Of a stretch of DNA of 64,000 nucleotides, positions 45,699 to 56,278 are shown one piece after another. Origin of the DNA: an uncultured Methanoregulaceae archaeon (GTDB taxonomy: Archaea; Halobacteriota; Methanomicrobia; Methanomicrobiales; Methanospirillaceae). The translations under genes were made by a program, and so were the position numbers. The stretch lies in NCBI GenBank assembly GCA_963806845.1, contig CAWDZO010000021.1, forward strand, positions 136,045 to 200,044, read 5' to 3'. Within the stretch, counting starts at the first letter, position 1; each line of letters starts with the position of its first letter. The notes under the pieces were generated by a model. The model was not told the origin of the DNA. It was given only the letters and a program-made list of their open reading frames with translations, and did no database searches.

Positions 45699-48600
45699 AT
45701 GAGAGTAAAACCTGGCATTTTACTAATCATGGGTTTGCTGTTCCTGGCAGGAACCGTTGCGGCGGTCGGGATTCCGGATACCCTGACTGTCACCACGGAC
45801 AAACCCTGGATCATAGCTAATAATCTTGATCAAGTCCACCATCACCGTAAAAGTAACGAATACAACCTCGGATCCTGGTCCTGTACAAGGAGTAATCGTA
45901 AACCTTGAAGTTGATCCGTTATATGGAAACATAAGTCCCACACAAGTCACCACAAATATTTCGGGAATGGCGTCAAGCACCTTCAAAGTGAGCACCAGGA
46001 GTGGGGCAGCACAAATAAATGCATCCATACCCGCGGGGGTTTCTGGTTCAACAATGCAGAATATAGATCATAACAGTGCCTATTTTGCAGATTTTACCCA
46101 TCCGATGAATGGGACCGTTGCATCCGAAGTTCCATTTAATGTATCACTTACCGATCAATACCGGAATCCTGTGGATAATCGAAGAGGGAACCATATAGTA
46201 AATCTCCACGTTCATGGTCCTTTCCCGGATGACTGCGGTTTTGCTGAAGCCGGCTATGCACATGATATTTCACCCATACTGGATGCAAACGGAAACACCA
46301 CAGTAAATGTCAAATTAACCTCCCGCGTAGGTGACAACAACATTGCAATGGACGCATATGAGAGTATCCCGAACCAACTTGCATGGATCTCTGCCGAGGC
46401 AATTGGCAAACCGTTTTCGATGACTCAGGTTTATTCACCTTCGGGATCTCCACCGACGCTTCCCGCGGACGGGGTGAGTTATTTCACGATAATTTATAAT
46501 TTGTTTGATGAATACGGGAATCCAACGAACAAACAATTTATCTGGGTAAATACCTCCATTCCCGGGGAGGAAAGACAGTTCCTGTCAAACAATCTGGGTC
46601 AGGTAACAGTACAGTATGGTCCCCGATCATCTATAGGTCAAATTGATATCATTGCAACAGCTGTGGGTAATACCTCAGTAAACTGTAGTCAAACGGTAAT
46701 ATTCAAGAACACGGGTGCGGAGATCATATCCCTTACCGCGAATCCTGATACTATGCCAAGCCAGGATGCAAATCCTTTCTTTTTATCTGATGTTATCGCA
46801 ACGGTTGCGGATATCTCGGGAAATGCAGTTCCCGGAGAGACGGTAAACTTCACTATAGAGGATATTACCTATAATTCCTATAATCTGACAGCAAACCCGC
46901 TCCTGTTGACTACCACCGCTGTAACCGATGAATATGGACAAGCTGTGGTTCAATTCAGACCCGGGAACTTTACAACGGTAGGCAATCCCGGTTACAATGC
47001 AACGGCAACAGGACAGTGTAAGGTGAATGCAACCTGGAGAAATTCGACAAAAATCGTTCCCCTGACCTGGAAGAATTATCCTTACCTGAGTGCGTCAACC
47101 AGGGTGACTCCTCTGACCGTTGAGATTAACAAGACGATTGATGTTACGATTGAGTTCAGAGGTGACGGGTGGGCTTTGCAGCCTACACCAATCGATGTTG
47201 TGATGTGCACAGACCGGTCAGGAAGTATGCTCTATAACGGAACTGATGGCATCATCGATGACCGGATGGTCCATGCAATGAGGGCGGGCAGGATTTTTAA
47301 TGCGAACATGGGTTCAAATGACCGGGTCGGGCTCGTATCGTTCGGAGATAATAGTGCCACCAGTGGATGGGCTGAACTGAGACAGGGTTTTTCGCACCAA
47401 TATAGTGGTGCCCAGTGGGTCAGCAAAGATAATACATGGACCGGAGATAACGCCTACATTACATCAAATTATCCGGGAAATCCGAAGAATTACGGAACAA
47501 CCCAGTATGCCAGTATTGACCAGAACTTAAGTTATACAAAATCAATGGTGAATACATCAATTTCAAACATGGTTCCAGCAGGAGGAACACCCATGCGGGA
47601 GGGGTTATACCGCTCAGTAAAGATGCTGGAAGATGATCCTCGATCAACTGCCATAAGCGCTGTCGTACTTATTAACTGACGGGGCATGGAACACCGGAGG
47701 AAATCCGCAAGGCGGTGCAGGCGCAACCTCGTTCGGTGTGGTTGGAACGGGGAGTGTCATTACCTGGGCAAAAAATAATAATATACGGATATATACCATC
47801 CGTCTCGGAACTGAGGCGTCGCAAACCGAACTGAAGGCATATGCGAATGAGACCGGGGGTAAGTATTTTAACGCACCCACTGCGGATCAGCTGGATGACA
47901 TATACAGAGCTATCGCCGGAGATCTGAAAGACACCGCCGGGGTAAACACCACCATGATGGCGGATTTCGAGAACGTTAATGTCACCGGAGTATCTATGCC
48001 CGGTAATCTGGTATACAACTATGTATACCATCCAACCGATTCGACAAAGATCAATTGGCAGGATGGAACAACGAATGTCACCAACCAATCCGCTGACTGG
48101 GCTGCCGATAATAAACTGGACTTCTCTATCGGAACCATAAAAGTAGGTCAAGTATGGAATGCTACCTTTCGGCTCAGAGTCAACCAGAGTGGAATGATTG
48201 ATGTTTTTGGTAACAATTCCACAGTATCCTTTAACGGGGGTCTGGAAAAACTGACGCTCCCTCAGACATTCATCACAGTAATACCCAACCTCACGGTCAC
48301 TGAAATTACCACGAAAACGATAACGCTCGATAATCTGACGTGTACCGAAGCCGGAGAGATCAAGGCTCTCTTTCCGGTAAAATGGAACACAAACTATACA
48401 GGAAATAAAACCCTCACGGAAAAGGTCTATTATCGCATTGATACAGGACCCTGGGTTCAATTCGACACAAAAACACATCCGTATGATCCCCTTACCATGG
48501 AATATGTGGATTATGCACAACTCGTTGTAACAAAACTCCCACCGGGAGATTTCAAGATTCAGGTACGTGCAACTGCCTCCGATGCACCCGATGCTGTGGC

Positions 48601-48748
48601 TGAAACCGGCGTGAGGGAGGTAGGTGGACGAGGGAAAACGTTTATTAAACTTGAAGCTCCCCCGTTCGAGAATTTTGAACAAATCCTTGACAATACTCAG
48701 TTCTTCAATCAAAATCCGTGGGGAATTGTGCATAGCTGGAGCGGTTAA
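45699..48748 (+). CDS. Secreted Ig-like (invasin/Big-type) repeat + vWA domain surface protein (two frameshifts)
   Basis: Signal peptide; repeated L.D.YGNP/T...G Ig motifs; MIDAS DRSGS, GGTPM, TDG, IYTI.LG, TGGKYF. Confidence 0.8.
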
Positions 48749-49637: not shown

Positions 49638-49900
49638 CGGTAAAAATAGCAAATTGAGTTGGAAAGCATCCTTATGGTCAAATCATTATCAGCAATCAAT
49701 CGCATCATCATTCGAAGTTTTTTCATACCACAGAAAATGGGATGAAGCATTTTTTTAATCTTAAAACATTCCATGGTGCACTCATTTATACGCTGCTCAT
49801 CGTTATAAGGAGAGAAATTACATTCAGATGTATTATTTTTGCCCTTGATCGGTTTCTTAAAAAAATTATCTAACATAATAGATGCATTATGAGCTTTCAG

Positions 49901-49922
49901 GCGAGCCAAATATTTATATAAC
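49901..49922 (+). promoter_or_regulatory. Putative archaeal BRE/TATA promoter of the tasA-like operon
   Basis: GCGAGCCAAA-TATTTATATA about 80 nt upstream of the ORF start. Confidence 0.5.
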
Positions 49923-49996
49923 GTAACCACAAAGTGGTAAATATCCTTTTTACAGGAAAAATGCATTCAATTCCATTTCATAAATCTGACTAAAAT

Positions 49997-50701
49997 ATGG
50001 TGATTAAATTGAGAAAAAAAGAGATGAGTACGAAAAAAGTTCTCTTAATCAGCATCATGCTGATAGCGCTGACCGCACTCCTGACAGGTGTCGGGACAAT
50101 GGCATATTTCAGTTCAACTCAAACGAGTGGTCCCAATCTGCTCAGTACAGGAAGCATTACGATTAACGTTAATGGTCAGGATCCCTGGACCGGCACCTTC
50201 AACGCAACGCTTGCAGATGTGAAACCCGGTTTAAAGCGTTGGGGAAACGTTACCGTGCAGAACACCGGGCAGAATCAGGCAGATCTCTGGTTGAATACTA
50301 TTAATGTTGTCACGGACAACGGATCAAATACCTCCGCAGAGATTTTAGAACCCTACGCCTTTGATATCGACGGGGTAATCCGTTATGATTTGTATAATAA
50401 CACCGGTTCGGGCCTTCAGCCAATAATCACGGACTCTAACGATTACACGATCAGCACGGGAACTCATAATTTAACCGGATCTCTTCAAACCACTGCGATG
50501 AAAGATCAATGGATTTACCTGGGTAACATTCCCTCCGGGGCAACATGGCAGATTAACCAGAGTTATATGATGGACCGTAACGTCACCAACTGGGCGCAGA
50601 CGGATAATATGACATTCAACGTCGTATTTTATGCCCAACAGAGCCAGGGTACCCCACTACCGGCAGCCCCATCACCAGAACTCCCGGGACACGGAAGATA
50701 A
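49997..50701 (+). CDS. TasA/camelysin-family pilin with SipW-type signal peptide
   Basis: GVGTMA|YFSS cleavage signature, TGSITINV, VKPG, VQNTG, and C-terminal NWAQTDNMTFNVVFYAQQ; directly followed by a SipW-type peptidase. Confidence 0.85.
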   Translation: MVIKLRKKEMSTKKVLLISIMLIALTALLTGVGTMAYFSSTQTSGPNLLSTGSITINVNGQDPWTGTFNATLADVKPGLKRWGNVTVQNTGQNQADLWLNTINVVTDNGSNTSAEILEPYAFDIDGVIRYDLYNNTGSGLQPIITDSNDYTISTGTHNLTGSLQTTAMKDQWIYLGNIPSGATWQINQSYMMDRNVTNWAQTDNMTFNVVFYAQQSQGTPLPAAPSPELPGHGR

Positions 50702-50761
50702 CCCGGATTGTGCAGGTAATTTTCCTGCATAGTAACATTTAAGGTGACGTGGTAACAGGAG

Positions 50762-51283
50762 ATGAATACGCAAAACCTGAACTCAGGAAAACCTCAAATA
50801 AAACGAGTGGGAAGAGTCGCAGCAATTCTCCTCCTTATTTTAATTATTTCCGGGTCATTATTCACCATCGTTTCGCCCTTTTTTGGCTGGAGGACTGAGG
50901 TAGTCATTTCAGGGAGTATGGAGCCTGCGATACAGACAGGCAGTGTCGTTATTGTCCGCCCCATAGTTCCGGATACTATCCAAAAAGGAGATATTATCAT
51001 GTTTTCTTCGCTCGATATGACGAGCCTGACCACACACCGGGTAGTTAATGTAGAATATGAGCCCACACTCCAGTTCATCACCAAAGGAGATGCTAACAAA
51101 AATTCTGACATAACCCCGATCGTACCCGGTCAAATTGTGGGTATTGTTGCCTTCACTATCCCGTATCTTGGGGTCATCACCCAGTTCATCAAAACACCAC
51201 TGGGATTCACCCTTTTCTTCCTGATTCCGGCAATGATTCTTATCGGACGCGAGGTGCTTGATCTCTGGAGAGAGATGGAATAA
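50762..51283 (+). CDS. sipW: Signal peptidase I, SipW/Sec11 (ER) type
   Basis: VISGSMEP (Ser), THRVV (His), TKGDAN..D, IPYLG, N- and C-terminal TM helices. Confidence 0.9.
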   Translation: MNTQNLNSGKPQIKRVGRVAAILLLILIISGSLFTIVSPFFGWRTEVVISGSMEPAIQTGSVVIVRPIVPDTIQKGDIIMFSSLDMTSLTTHRVVNVEYEPTLQFITKGDANKNSDITPIVPGQIVGIVAFTIPYLGVITQFIKTPLGFTLFFLIPAMILIGREVLDLWREME

Positions 51284-51304
51284 CAGAGAGTAGAGCCTTA
51301 AACC

Positions 51305-52678
51305 ATGAAAACCACAGCCATCGTAATTCTTGTCTTAACTCTCGTGGTAATTTCTCTCAGTACCTTTGGTACAACCCATGCATATTTCACCTCTAAACAG
51401 GTAACGGGTCCGCATCTTGTGTCGACGTGGCAATCCTCTTTCTGGACCCAGACAACCCAGGCTGACTTTTTGGCAGGTGTTCTGGTTAATGTTAATACAA
51501 GTACCAGTCCAGGGAGTGTCCTACTGGATAACCAGACAACAGGTCCGTCGATTTTTGCTACAACAGGAAGTTCAAGGAATTTTTTACAATATTTTGTATC
51601 CAACAATACGTGGGTAGCAAGGGCGATTGCTCCAGCAAATATTGGAGCCGGGGGAGGAGCTCGGTATATCGGGATGGGCAATATTTCTGTGATCCGAGGT
51701 GGTAATTCCAATGCTTTCTGGATCTATAACATCTCCACCAATACGTGGTCAGTAAAGGCAAACACACTAGGTAGTGTGAACACAGGAGGAACATTATCAG
51801 ATTATATCGGGTCTGGCAATATCTCGACACTCAGAGGTGCCAGTTCACGCACATTCTGGATATACAACATCTCCAGTAATACATGGTCAGTAAAGGCAAA
51901 TACCCCCATCGGCGGTAATGTTGGTACCGGGGGAGCTTTGGCATATATTGGATCTGGTAATATCTCGGCGCTCAGAGGTGCTAACTCACGCACATTCTGG
52001 TTTTACAACATCTCCACCAATACGTGGTCAGTAAAGGCAGATGTTCCCGGTAATGTAGGTGCCGGGGGAGCCATTGCATATGATAACGGAAACTATATTT
52101 ACGCATTTAACGGAACGAATACCCGTAATTTCTTGAGATACAGCATCTCCGGCAATTCATGGTCCGCATTGGCAAATATACCCGGAAATGTTGGTGCAGG
52201 AGGATCTCTGGTTTCGGATAAGGGGAATTATATTTACGCATTTAACGGTACAACGACTCCCTATTTCTGGAGATATGACATTACCAATAACAGCTGGAGT
52301 GAAACTGCAGTTGCCAACCCACCAGCGAATGTTGGTGCAGGGGGAAGTCTGACGTACGTTGCCGGTTCTTCCGGATACATCCCCCTTGGTACCATTGCCT
52401 CGCCTGTATTTGACACCGGGAATGCGGGAGCACGATGGGACTCACTCTTTTGGGATAGCACCCTTGTTACAGGAACGAATGTGACCTTTGAGGTACGGGC
52501 GTCCAACACCCTCTTTAATAAATCTGACGCAGCACCTGCCTGGCAACAATCCGGCTGGCCATCACCGGTTAATTCAGGGCTCCCCTCCGGCAGGTATCTC
52601 CAATGGCGTGCCACCCTTTCGACAAGCAATTCATCAAGAACACCAATTCTTAACGAAGTGACAGTATGGTACTCGTAA
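51305..52678 (+). CDS. Secreted SipW-type substrate with six Kelch-like propeller blades inserted in a beta-sandwich (putative tip adhesin)
   Basis: GTTHA|YFTS signal; six F..Y....N.W / G(A/T)GG repeats; flanking WTQTTQADF...SPVFDTG...RYLQWRATL...TPIL.EV. Confidence 0.8.
   Translation: MKTTAIVILVLTLVVISLSTFGTTHAYFTSKQVTGPHLVSTWQSSFWTQTTQADFLAGVLVNVNTSTSPGSVLLDNQTTGPSIFATTGSSRNFLQYFVSNNTWVARAIAPANIGAGGGARYIGMGNISVIRGGNSNAFWIYNISTNTWSVKANTLGSVNTGGTLSDYIGSGNISTLRGASSRTFWIYNISSNTWSVKANTPIGGNVGTGGALAYIGSGNISALRGANSRTFWFYNISTNTWSVKADVPGNVGAGGAIAYDNGNYIYAFNGTNTRNFLRYSISGNSWSALANIPGNVGAGGSLVSDKGNYIYAFNGTTTPYFWRYDITNNSWSETAVANPPANVGAGGSLTYVAGSSGYIPLGTIASPVFDTGNAGARWDSLFWDSTLVTGTNVTFEVRASNTLFNKSDAAPAWQQSGWPSPVNSGLPSGRYLQWRATLSTSNSSRTPILNEVTVWYS
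51670..52260 (+). repeat. Intragenic tandem repeats encoding propeller blades (period ~135-141 bp)
   Basis: TGGTCAGTAAAGGCA at 51746, 51884 and 52025; TATATTTACGCATTTAACGG at 52094 and 52229. Confidence 0.9.
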
Positions 52679-52739
52679 TCTCAGGTACGCAAGTATCCAT
52701 CCCGTTGCAGGAAGACCTCATAATACTAGGGGGTGTACA

Positions 52740-53830
52740 GTGAGGACTTCAGGGATGGCATACCAGAGATCATTATTCCCGCTGGCGGTATTCATTTTCA
52801 TTCTCCTCATTCTTCTGCCAGTACCGGTTTTTGCTCAGGGCCCCGTTGACCTCACCTTCGGAGAGACGGGTATGTTCCCATGGAGCATCACGGGAATTCT
52901 GCCAGGGGACCATGGTTCAACCTTTATCGATCTTCATAACAATGGGACCGAAAACGGAATTGTCTATATTTGGGTGGATAACATCAGCATGTCTGATAGA
53001 CACGGTAATCCTGGCGGTGGGATTGCCAATTATATGTACTTCAACATCTCACAGCATCATCTCATTAGCACGGTAATTCTTCCAGCTCGTATCAATTCTT
53101 TTCCCAAAGCTCCCCTGCTGCCAGATGATTTTATCATCATTGAATCATTCAATGCCGGGGATACAATCAGGCTCAACTGGACATGGGAATTTGAAGAAAC
53201 AGGGCAGCCACAGAATGATGCACAGAATAATACTCTGCGCTTCGACCTCTCATACACACTGGTGAATCTTACCACCCCACTAATACCGACTCCAGTTCCT
53301 ACGGTGATACCCCCAGGAACTTCAACAGGAAAAAATGTGATGCCCCAAGGTCCTTCCCTATTCGAGGCCGGGGGAATCCCCGGATTAAATCCTGCTCAAC
53401 GTCCCCAACTCAGAGCACCAATGGAGGAACCTCCGGAGATGGAGCCCCAGCAACCAAAGCTTCCTGATTACGGGCACATTATGATACTGGCATTCATCAT
53501 ACTTGCCATTGCGGTTGCCCTTCATTCACAACGAAAGATGCATCCAGAGTGGAAGGGTCCTGCAGATGTTCTTCTTGGGGTTGGAATCGTCGCGATAATA
53601 ATCGGCATACTCTACCAGTCATATCTTATTTCAATCCGCGATGGCCCGCACCTCACCGGAGCGCATTCGGTTGCGGGGCTCATTGCCACGATTTTATTAA
53701 TTCCGGCTCTGGTATTATGGAAACGCCAAATCGACCAGAAAGAGAGAGGAAAATAATTGTATGGATTATTGTTCATTGGGTTGTTACAACGATCGTGTGC
53801 CGAGTACCCGGTCTTTTGAGGGGTGGAACG
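52740..53830 (+). CDS. TasA-fold ectodomain + Pro-rich linker + multi-pass membrane anchor (possible frameshift near 53750)
   Basis: Ordinary signal (VFA|QG); ILPGD, LHNNG and NDAQNNTLRFDLSYTL match the pilin core; PTPVPT linker; three TM helices plus a likely fourth in the shifted frame. Confidence 0.65.
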
Positions 53831-53946
53831 ATTGATGGTTGTGCCTCGGGGATATTTTTGTTGATTGTGATGGGAACAAACGAAATCCACGGATTCATAG
53901 AAGTTATATATTACCGGGTAAAGAGTGTGAAATATGAGGATCACGA

Positions 53947-56278
53947 ATGAACTGGTTTGATTCTATACGGCAGGACCACCCATTTTTTTTCCGCTGTATT
54001 ACTTTTATGTTTTTCGTTCAGATCTTCTTTGGACTCCTGTTTTTAATAATCAGCCCGGTCACTGCAGCCACAGATACTCCTCCAGGATCAGATCCTCGCA
54101 TAGGATGGGTGAAATCATTCGAACAACATAGTGACGGAGGGACGTATTCCATCATTGCCGCAAGTGATGGGGGATCGGTGGCCAGCGGAAATATTAAATC
54201 TCCTTCCGGGAAGTTCCAGTCTCTATGTCATAAAAACCGATACAAATGGAAATAAAATATGGGACTGGAACGACGCAGGAAGTACCTATGAAGGATATTC
54301 CATTATTGAAACACCGGATAAAGGATATGTTGTTGTCGGAAGTTCCAATACTACCATCACGAACGGGATTTATTCTCATGAAACTTGATCCGGTCGGAAA
54401 AATGACATGGACACAGCTATTCAAAAAAGGTGAGTATTACTTCGGAAATCATATCAGTACAACACATGACGGAGGATTCATCGTTGCCGGGGCCGTGTTG
54501 AGGAATGACACTTCTTCATCGTCTCTCTGGGACGGGTACACTCTCAAAACCGATGCAGAAGGAAGAGAACAGTGGACCGGTTTTTTTAAGGGCGAAAAAA
54601 ATGATTTCGCCAAGTTCATCCGCCAGACCGAAGACGGGGGATATATAATTGCCGGGACCACCGAAAGCTATGGCATTACCGGTGTTCCGTTAACGTACCT
54701 GCACAAGATGAATGAATTTGGCAATAAAGAATGGCTTACCACCTATGGAAGCGGGCTGGGGAATGAAAAACTATCTGTCATTCAAACACCGGAAGGAGGG
54801 TATATCCTCATGGGAATCTCCCTGCCCGTTACCACTAATCAAGGATGTATGGATCTTTTTCTGGTCAGAACCGATGATCATGGCAAAGAACTTTGGAAAA
54901 AAAATTTTCCCGGGATGGGGAGAGCCACGGGTAACCTCCTTATCCCAGGCTGCTGAAGGTATAACCGTCATCGCAGGTTCCTGCCAGGGATCTGAACGCG
55001 ATAAAACCGGTGAGATAATCTTACGTGACATCGATCTGAACGGCAATGAGAAGCGGAACCGCACATTCAGTATCGGACAATCCATCGATATACAGGATAT
55101 TGCAGTTGTCCCGGGTGAAGGATATTTCATTAGCCGGTATATTTACCGATCAGGAAAGCCCCCAAAAAAACGGGTTTGGCCATTATCAAGATACTCGATA
55201 CCCCCTCCCGCACTGAGGTACCTGAGAAAAACTCATTCGACTTCACGGTAATAACAAAAGATGCTGAAACCGGGACTTTTATTGGAGGGGCCCATGTGTA
55301 TCTTGACGGGGGGTCAGTCGGAAGCACCTCGGAGCAGGATGGAAAGCAGATTCTCCGTGATGTTGAGAGAGGCTCACATACTATCAGGGTGGCAAAAACA
55401 GGATATGAAGAGATCACCCGACCAGTCGATATTACTGAAAAGAAGCAGGTCTCCTTCACTCTCAACCGATCAAACGTGATACCGGTGCAAATCCATGGAT
55501 CAACAGATGAAAAGATTGATATTGTTTTTGTCGCCTTCAAAAACTTCGTTTAACTGTAATTCCAAAACAAAAATCCAGACCGACAGTATATACCGGTAAT
55601 CAGCAACGATTCATCCAGATGTAAACAATAAAGTTGAATGTTTTTTTAACAGTTGGATACCCTGACCTCCGGTTCGGTGGGTTTGCCCAAGGATTTCCGG
55701 GAACGGTTCAATTTTTATTACTACTGGGATACCGGGAGTTACGCTGATGCTTTCGAAGGTTGTGCTGGAACACTTCCCAATGAATTCTGGAATGATGCAC
55801 CATTCACTGATGTGGCAATTATCATGTACCCGTCCTATGAGGGTCTGCTATTCCGGCTCCCCCGTGTGAACCAATTGGGTGTGCAAACGGCCTGGGGCCC
55901 GGATCAGGATCCTGGCTGAAAGCACCAGCTGATTCCCCCATGATTTTTCTGCATGAGAGCGGGCATGTGGTCTTTGGTCTGATTGATACCTATTGCGGGG
56001 ATACCTATTACGTGGAAAATTCTCCTTTTCCCAATGTCTGGAGTTCTGAATCCTCATGCAAAAAAAATGCCGAGCAGGAACGCTGGGATATCACAAGCTG
56101 CCGGCAAATTTTAAAACCTGCCAGCAGCCGGTCAAAAGATCCCTGTGTGAAAAATTTCTGGAGAGCGGATACTGATCCTGATATCATGGGCAGCGGGGCA
56201 TATTCCGGCAGGTTCGGTAATGCTTCAACTTCACATATCCGTCATATTTTTGATACGATCAACAGGTGGCAGAAATGA
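53947..56278 (+). CDS. Secreted beta-propeller + PEGA-like + HExxH zinc metallopeptidase (M64-like) protein (multiple frameshifts)
   Basis: Signal peptide; repeated T.DGG(Y/F)I.AG and KTD..G...W blades; GAHVYLDG...K.GY; KIDIVFV; HESGHVVFGLIDTY; DIMG. Confidence 0.7.

Follow-up and report, generated by a model that had tools for sequence, protein, structure and literature searches.

In the Bacillus subtilis TasA system, TapA donates its N-terminus to TasA and is a donor-only initiator (PMC10151520). A larger set of roles has been modelled for the tafi loci, represented by TafA-G of Haloarcula hispanica and the TafE pilus of Natrinema, in which TafC is a donor-only tip with a laminin-G-like domain, TafE an adapter, TafA the shaft, TafD the peptidase and TafG a DUF5305 protein (PMC11821415, PMC12337348). 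The tafi terminator, TafF, carries a Sec signal, which the other tafi subunits lack, and consists of a pilin-like N-domain of about 140 amino acids (aa) followed by transmembrane (TM) helices; Sec-type analogues of tafi were reported in Thermococcus and Archaeoglobus (PMC11821415, PMC12337348). The AbpX loci encode donor-strand fibrils together with a ten-TM peptidase, DUF5305, predicted tips and minor subunits, and the bacterial loci among them have anchors (bioRxiv 10.64898/2026.01.04.697558). The same preprint describes an uncharacterised archaeal TasA-like cluster beside bacterial TasA, and the list of archaeal orders with PF12389 homologs given by Wang et al. does not include Methanomicrobiales. 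Here we describe four adjacent genes, g1 to g4, from an uncultured Methanoregulaceae archaeon of the order Methanomicrobiales, and we consider it probable that they form a cassette for a Sec-dependent, TasA-type donor-strand fibre held at the cell.

The genes lie in a window of 64,000 nucleotides (nt), contig C21:136045-200044, of a 1.75-Mb metagenome-assembled genome (MAG) that is 56% complete. The nearest relatives of the MAG sequences carry the labels Methanoregula or Methanoregulaceae, which bears out the placement in Methanomicrobiales made earlier from the sequence alone. Positions given below are those of the window unless another genome or locus is named.

Overall organization of the cassette

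All four genes are open reading frames (ORFs) on the plus strand, spanning positions 49997-53756 with intergenic gaps of 60, 21 and 61 bp. An earlier sequence-only reading of this DNA had proposed four tightly spaced, co-oriented genes at 49997-53830, encoding the shaft, tip and base of a pilus and a dedicated peptidase. The arrangement and the start of the locus agreed with that reading, whereas its end did not, as the g4 ORF stops at 53756.

g1 is a TasA-family subunit

The predicted product of g1 matched Pfam Peptidase_M73 (PF12389) with 26.3 bits (gathering cut-off 22.5) over profile positions 3-194 of 196, and it scored 25.3 against the NCBIfam model of the SipW-cognate signal, TIGR04088 (cut-off 19). 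Both scores exceed their cut-offs and bear out the earlier description of g1 as a TasA-like pilin with a GTMA/YF SipW-type signal (a slash marks the cleavage point). When the g1 family profile was compared with solved structures, TasA (5OF1/8AUR) was the best match with an E value of 1e-4, and AbpX matched weakly (E 0.25-0.5). The cleavage region reads GVGTMA/YFSSTQTSGPNLLST, with YFSSTQTSGPNLLST as the mature N-terminus, and the jelly-roll core comes after the donor segment. By both PF12389 and the profile match to 5OF1/8AUR, g1 is a TasA-family subunit that has a donor segment as well as a jelly-roll core, and it plausibly belongs to the archaeal TasA-like cluster of the AbpX preprint.

No twin-arginine was seen in the N-terminal sequences of g1 and g3, and their signals are Sec-type. 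Nine N-x-S/T sequons were found in g1. The density of such N-glycosylation sequons is raised about fourfold in g1, in g3 and in the ectodomain of g4 only, and none occurs in g2 or in the TM region of g4. The enrichment points to exposure of these three parts on the cell surface.

g2 is a SipW-like signal peptidase

The g2 protein matched the sigpep_I_arch model TIGR02228 with 107.9 bits (cut-off 51.85) over profile positions 8-154 of 158. It has one N-terminal and two C-terminal hydrophobic segments and contains the motifs SGSM at 50-53 (S52), HR (H92) and GDAN at 109-112 (D110). As in Sec11/SipW-type enzymes in general, SGSM, H92 and GDAN are taken to hold the catalytic residues. The TIGR02228 score and these motifs confirmed the assignment of g2 as a SipW/Sec11 peptidase. 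The same 107.9 bits fall below the cut-off of 190 of the Bacillus SipW equivalog model NF046067, and g2 would be SipW-like in role but is no SipW ortholog by that model. A second sigpep_I_arch match is present in the 56%-complete MAG at C21:226908-227501, with 41.9 bits, which is under the cut-off. Because of this other sigpep_I_arch-like gene, g2 appears to be an extra, locus-linked peptidase.

g3 combines a pilin-like N-terminus with a Kelch propeller

In g3 the cleavage region reads FGTTHA/YFTSKQVTGPHLVST, and the first 21 residues of the mature protein (27-47, beginning YFTSKQVTGPHLVST) are almost the same as those at the start of mature g1. The signal and cleavage regions of the two proteins are colinear by direct alignment and by hhalign, and the likeness of the g3 signal rests on these comparisons. 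When g3 was compared with the pilin profile by hhalign, the sole match was residues 27-47 of g3 with residues 37-57 of g1 (E 2.6e-4), and no TasA-like core was found in g3 by this comparison. In the AlphaFold2 (AF2) monomer model, with a pLDDT of 83, residues 22-35 fall below 50 and are disordered. From the restriction of the pilin match to residues 27-47 and the disorder of residues 22-35 in the unpaired model, g3 is predicted to be donor-only.

Most of the remaining protein is a propeller. Pfam matches were Kelch_6 (74.3 bits), Kelch_1 and Kelch_4, with repeats scoring over the Pfam cut-offs, and the fold matched KLHL17 (6HRL) with Z 36.2 and a root-mean-square deviation of 1.5 Å over 262 aligned residues. 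g3 had been described as a second substrate of the peptidase, GTTHA/YF, that is a propeller protein; the motif and the Kelch fold were found as described, and the corresponding TIGR04088 score was not. No TapA family match was found for g3 in the Pfam and NCBIfam scans. The C-terminal domain gave only chance-level matches in a comparison with a protein atlas, and a fold search with the whole model was filled by propeller matches.

Across 16 loci, the g3 N-terminus tracks the donor segment of its cognate pilin, with 35.5 BLOSUM units for cognate against 19.8 for non-cognate pairs, a comparison that is descriptive only, related genomes not being independent. The g3 family has an exchangeable middle module, which is Kelch in the Methanoregula lineage, and DUF2341 and/or Laminin_G_3 in the Methanofollis-like genus g11, in Methanofollis and in Dehalococcoidales. 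This module is likely the binding end. In the same-genus genome G106 (locus L016, 7171-8690, minus strand), the g3 homolog appears split; the apparent split is a run of N with no frameshift.

g4 is a membrane protein with a predicted TasA core

Peptidase_M73 matched g4 only faintly (14.4 bits, E 0.035), and g4 is not a member at the Pfam level. In the hhalign comparison with the pilin family, residues 31-178 of g4 aligned with residues 49-217 of g1 with a probability of 96.3% and E 1.8e-9; the alignment starts at pilin residue 49, past the donor segment. The AF2 model of the g4 ectodomain had a pLDDT of 91.2, and its best matches in the PDB were TasA 5OF2/5OF1 (prob 1.00, TM-scores 0.55/0.50) and the TasA fibre. 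The proposal that g4 is a TasA core with a membrane anchor is confirmed by hhalign and by the fold match, and not at the level of Pfam. By alignment and model, g4 is a remote TasA-core homolog that lacks the donor segment and continues into a linker and C-terminal TM helices. A PDB sequence search with the g4 profile returned designed TM proteins only, with a meaningless E of about 0.6, and all Pfam matches of the TM region (DUF998 and others) were weak and below the cut-off.

Clustering of 1.84 billion proteins at 50% gives 206 representatives of the anchor family, to which g4 belongs. Nearly all of them begin the TasA core straight after an AxA signal. The C-terminus mostly has one TM helix, in some cases two to five, and PKD or CARDB stalks are present in some members. 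The TM count, which ranges from 1 to 5 among family members, speaks against an enzymatic membrane domain that is conserved, and the variation of the whole anchor part (1, 3, 4 or 5 TM helices; PKD or CARDB stalks) argues for g4 as a tether and not an enzyme.

Most relatives of g4 are 363-369 aa long. In g4 itself, a frameshift in an A-rich run (AGAAAGAGAGAGGAAAATAA) cuts off the fourth TM helix. An assembly error was considered as the cause of this truncation and is unlikely, because the short form of 337-338 aa is common to independent metagenome clusters (P0001 and P0005). The third TM region, at about residues 300-312 (about 53640-53675), carries the motif G-x-H-L-x-G-x-H-x-x-x-G-L-I-A with two histidines. 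This motif is kept among the Methanoregula homologs of g4 and partly in g11 (YHALAG).

Predicted insertion of the g1 donor strand into g4

Complex prediction was run for a single pair, mature g1 and the g4 ectodomain, and was scored against controls. The pair had an ipSAE of 0.78, and the best control 0.00. Of 80 solved complexes 58 attain this mark, compared with 2 of 110 mismatched pairs, a calibration that holds only roughly here since our own alignments were used. At least 96% of the contacts agreed between runs, and the partner pLDDT was at least 86. In the predicted complex, residues 37-55 of g1 sit between the first (2-8) and the last (129-145) strand of the g4 ectodomain and run antiparallel to the latter. 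This geometry matches that of TasA, in which D31-S41 pairs with A230-N220 (PMC10151520). The strand complementation proposed for the pilus was thus predicted for g1 and g4, in a model that speaks for resemblance to the TasA interface and does not prove binding.

Conservation and spread of the cassette

The order of pilin, SipW, g3-like protein and anchor is kept at every anchor locus with sufficient flank. Among the 19 loci with at least 3 kb of upstream sequence, the pilin and SipW were present in all 19, and a protein with the g3 C-terminal domain preceded the anchor in 17. There is one anchor gene per cassette, and it is always the last gene. The cassette was found in Methanoregulaceae, in genus g11, in Methanomassiliicoccales, in Dehalococcoidales/Chloroflexi MAGs and in metagenome contigs. 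These include the same-genus genome G106, four g11 genomes (one grouping with a Methanofollis MAG) and three metagenome contigs with Kelch in third place. Relatives of the pilin query were found in 11 of the 150 other genomes of the order. The four genes are kept in order across two archaeal phyla and Chloroflexota, in agreement with the co-conservation on which the earlier reading depends.

Five loci of Dehalococcoidales/Chloroflexi MAGs (L041, L042, L044, L046 and L048) have the same four-gene cassette, and their tips, of the LamG/DUF2341 kind, reach 1058 aa. The SipW tree places the Chloroflexota cassettes in a single clade, grouped with the two Methanomicrobiales clades (99/95); the root of the tree is undefined, and the direction of transfer is not readable from it. 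Together, the bacterial cassettes and the SipW tree point to a putative inter-domain transfer.

Proposed assembly of the fibre

The family and fold of g1, g2 and g4, the donor-only g3, the acceptor-only g4, the insertion of g1 into g4 and the synteny were computed; from these we infer cleavage by g2, self-polymerisation of g1, the roles of g3 as initiator and tip and of g4 as terminator and anchor, tethering by the signal peptide and any binding by the propeller. All subunits would be exported by Sec. g2 would then cut g3 and g1 at A/YF and free their donor strands. Initiation would occur when the strand of g3 fills the groove of the first g1, so that g3 stays at the distal tip; TapA starts TasA fibres in this way, and a like role was proposed for TafC. 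Each g1 would give its strand to the next g1, and the newest g1, by its uncleaved signal peptide, would tether the fibre to the membrane during growth, until g4 takes its place. The chain would end when the groove of membrane-embedded g4 captures the last free g1 strand. Being unable to donate, g4 would both terminate and anchor the fibre, in the manner proposed for TafF. In this methanogen of peat or sediment, the most likely product is a thin surface fibre of interlocking TasA-like subunits. In silico, the earlier assignment of shaft, tip, base and dedicated peptidase is supported by the g1-to-g4 insertion, the donor-only g3, the acceptor-only g4 and the synteny, and it withstood each refuting check that was run, on the family of g1, on the strand insertion of g1 into g4 and on co-conservation.

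Several observations weigh against this assembly scheme. The cassette is rare: the pilin query matched only 1 of the 11 other genomes of the genus, and strong anchor matches were found in 6 of the 401 sampled genomes of the phylum. TIGR04088 gave no score on g3 at E <= 0.1, and g4 has an ordinary AxA signal, unlike g1 and g3. The favourable ipSAE of the g1-g4 pair may be due in part to its resemblance to 8AUR, the TasA fibre that is already solved. Finally, the fourth TM helix of g4 was lost by frameshift in this lineage, and two neighbouring genes are frameshifted too; because of this, the functional state of the cassette in this MAG is not certain.

An alternative that we regard as unlikely is a short surface-display complex without a long pilus, in which one or a few g1 adaptors link g3 to g4 by donor-strand complementation and the propeller serves as a receptor on a stalk. 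The donor and acceptor logic and the predicted g1-g4 complex fit this arrangement as well, the copy number of g1 is unconstrained by these data, and the anchors of some relatives already bear a long PKD or CARDB stalk, so that a long shaft is not strictly needed. However, g1 has both a donor and an acceptor and belongs to a polymerising family, it is first in the cassette, which is the usual position of a major subunit, and the characterised relatives TasA, tafi, ABP (archaeal bundling pili) and AbpX all make long fibres (PMC9674648, PMC11821415, PMC9245690).

It is also rather improbable that the fibres of g1 are shed into a matrix as in Bacillus biofilms, with g4 acting as a transient membrane-tethered holdase, an assembly platform or a length regulator that would catch free donor strands without serving as a lasting base. 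TasA and AbpX do serve as matrix scaffolds, release was proposed for the "non-finalised chains" of tafi (PMC11821415), TapA has been termed a chaperone-like initiator (PMC10151520), and the predicted binding of the g1 strand by g4 would also suit a holdase. As a rule, however, donor-strand complementation is very stable, and the combination of acceptor domain, stalks and C-terminal TM helices, consistent over the 206 representatives, suits a permanent tether, as does the position of the single anchor gene. The reading of g1 as a secreted camelysin-type (M73) metalloprotease among unrelated surface proteins, which follows the name of PF12389 (Camelysin metallo-endopeptidase), was rejected as highly improbable, because TasA, the solved member matched by g1, is a fibre subunit (5OF1, 8AUR), and because it gives no account of the donor segment common to g1 and g3, of the acceptor-only paralog or of the strict synteny of the four genes.

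Beyond the membrane-held fibre itself, which remains our preferred reading, the cassettes could represent a distinct class of mobile, self-terminating pilus common to methanogens (Methanomicrobiales and Methanomassiliicoccales) and Dehalococcoidales of the same anoxic habitats. Its growth would be timed by SipW cleavage of the membrane-held newest subunit and closed by the acceptor-only membrane subunit, and a swappable tip (Kelch or LamG/DUF2341) would set the specificity for a partner or surface, for example in cell-cell attachment within syntrophic consortia. We give this wider proposal little credence, and a role in syntrophic attachment, as suggested earlier, is pure speculation.

Features and neighbourhood of the locus

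The coordinates of the features are listed in Table 1. An AT-rich gap of 360 bp, preceded by a RadC gene, lies upstream of g1. Scans for sigma-70 promoters and intrinsic terminators gave sites no commoner than in shuffled sequence, a type of scan that is uninformative for archaea.

Table 1. Features of the g1-g4 locus (window positions; a slash marks signal peptide cleavage)
Feature	Position (nt)	Strand	Residues or length	Remarks
Candidate archaeal TATA box (TTTATATA)	49913..49920	+		AT-rich gap 5' of g1; picked by eye
g1	49997-50701	+	234 aa	TasA-like pilin, putative major subunit
g1 signal peptide			residues 1-36	cleavage GTMA/YF
g1 donor segment	50105-50149	+	residues 37-51	
g2	50762-51283	+	173 aa	SipW/Sec11-type signal peptidase I
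g3	51305-52678	+	457 aa	predicted donor-only tip or initiator, Kelch propeller
g3 signal			residues 1-26	
g3 donor segment	51383-51445	+	residues 27-47	
g3 six-bladed Kelch propeller	51536-52372	+	residues 78-356	
g3 conserved flanking beta-domain			about residues 45-77 plus 357-457	
g4	52740-53756	+	338 aa	predicted acceptor-only membrane base
g4 signal			residues 1-32	VFA/QG, ordinary AxA type
g4 TasA-like ectodomain	52836-53273	+	residues 33-178	
g4 Pro-rich linker			residues 179-242	
g4 three TM helices			about residues 243-330	
Remnant of fourth g4 TM helix (KIIVWIIVHWVVTTIVC...)	53750..53830	+		out of g4 frame; three-frame translation compared with 363-369 aa homologs

Parts of g1-g4 were matched at 90-99% likeness by RNA-library contigs from metatranscriptomes of three studies, and one of these spans the g1-g2 junction. 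The matches are to contigs in which DNA carry-over is possible, and stretches that they leave uncovered prove nothing; we did not count them as evidence of transcription or of an operon. One RNA-library contig joins position 49718 to 53330, with 3 other letters between, and skips 3611 nt (the whole cassette). This contig may come from a relative without the cassette or may be chimeric. If the joint is real, it would suit an accessory, insertable module.

Two neighbouring genes are disrupted. Directly 3' of g4, at 53878-56275 on the plus strand, the gene of a secreted propeller-PEGA-metallopeptidase-like protein is spread over frames 1, 2, 3 and 2, with at least three frameshifts; its homolog in G106 (L016 3772-6213, minus strand) is intact, with 813 aa. 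This gene is either a pseudogene or a product of assembly errors. On the other side, at 45826-48748 on the plus strand, a large Big_1/VWA surface protein is interrupted within its VWA domain. Its two ORFs, 45826-47679 and 47738-48748, differ in frame, and both halves match a single frame in G106.

Comparison with described systems

Among the nearest described systems is tapA-sipW-tasA of Bacillus subtilis (5OF1, 8AUR; PMC9674648, PMC10151520). One Pfam family takes in both g1 and TasA, the nearest solved relative of g1, and a small dedicated signal peptidase of the endoplasmic reticulum type is encoded adjacent in both. Both also have a second substrate, g3 or TapA, with an N-terminal segment that mimics the pilin donor strand, and the strands are predicted to pair with the geometry known from TasA. 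In contrast, g3 is a Kelch propeller with a conserved domain and without a TapA match in Pfam or NCBIfam, the gene order is different, and the Bacillus locus has no counterpart of g4, an apparent acceptor-only TasA core with its own C-terminal TM anchor.

With tafi, the likeness lies in the proposed architecture of donor tip, shaft, pilin-like terminator with TM helices, and dedicated peptidase. It is a match at the level of architecture. The tafi pilins are exported by twin-arginine translocation (Tat) and by sequence fall outside PF12389, whereas the signals of g1 and g3 are of the Sec type. The adapter pilin (TafE), the regulator (TafB) and the DUF5305 protein (TafG) of tafi are not in this locus, and DUF5305 (PF17231) was not found in the four genes, in their flanks or in the 56%-complete genome.

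AbpX of Pyrodictium abyssi (9SJ2/9RHP) also forms a donor-strand fibril with an adjoining TIGR02228-type peptidase, and many AbpX loci have a predicted tip and minor subunits. However, the peptidase of the AbpX type, with some ten TM helices and with DUF5305 as its partner, is absent from this cassette, and the anchors of AbpX loci are of the SLH or LPXTG cell-wall type, compared with an acceptor domain on TM helices in g4. Three other Methanomicrobiales loci, L022, L023 and L025 (families f5 and f6), represent a different type of fibre locus: besides a DUF5305 protein, they encode a pair of small TasA-like proteins and a signal peptidase with a fused multi-TM domain (326-351 aa). In gene content, these loci have the arrangement published for the AbpX and tafi loci.

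Archaeal bundling pili (AbpA) are similar in having a pilin of the TasA fold, N-terminal donor-strand insertion, no chaperone or usher, and a possible initiator or adhesin encoded adjacent. They differ in that AbpA is detectable by the most sensitive comparisons only, that no dedicated peptidase is near the ABP operon, and that AbpB is TapA-like; anchoring proteins are undescribed there, compared with g4 here.

The sequence-only reading knew of no TasA fibre with tip and base subunits in Methanomicrobiales. As a statement of principle, this novelty does not hold, since such a design is already published in the tafi model of tip, shaft and membrane terminator with a dedicated peptidase, in the tips and anchors of AbpX loci and in the TapA initiator (PMC11821415, PMC12337348, PMC10151520). 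In the literature searched, no paper pairs TasA with Methanoregula and none treats this specific cassette and these taxa. What appears to be new is this cassette and its taxa, with a single PF12389 pilin, a small SipW-like peptidase without DUF5305, and tip and anchor families of its own. With the principle published beforehand, what the locus offers is an extension and a clean model and not a new mechanism.

To our knowledge, surface fibres other than type IV are almost unknown in methanogens. With four genes and no chaperone, usher, sortase or ATPase, the cassette would be a compact, testable model of fibre building by donor strands, from start and extension to stop and anchoring, in an archaeon that lacks a wall. 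The anchor family with its predicted acceptor-only core and the tip family, predicted to be donor-only and with exchangeable cargo, provide handles for finding fibres in metagenomes, and both could serve in the display of proteins on cell surfaces. In comparison with the described systems, the locus would widen the reach of the tip-shaft-terminator logic, proposed for tafi, to TasA proteins in the strict sense as well as to Methanoregula, Methanomassiliicoccales and Dehalococcoidales.

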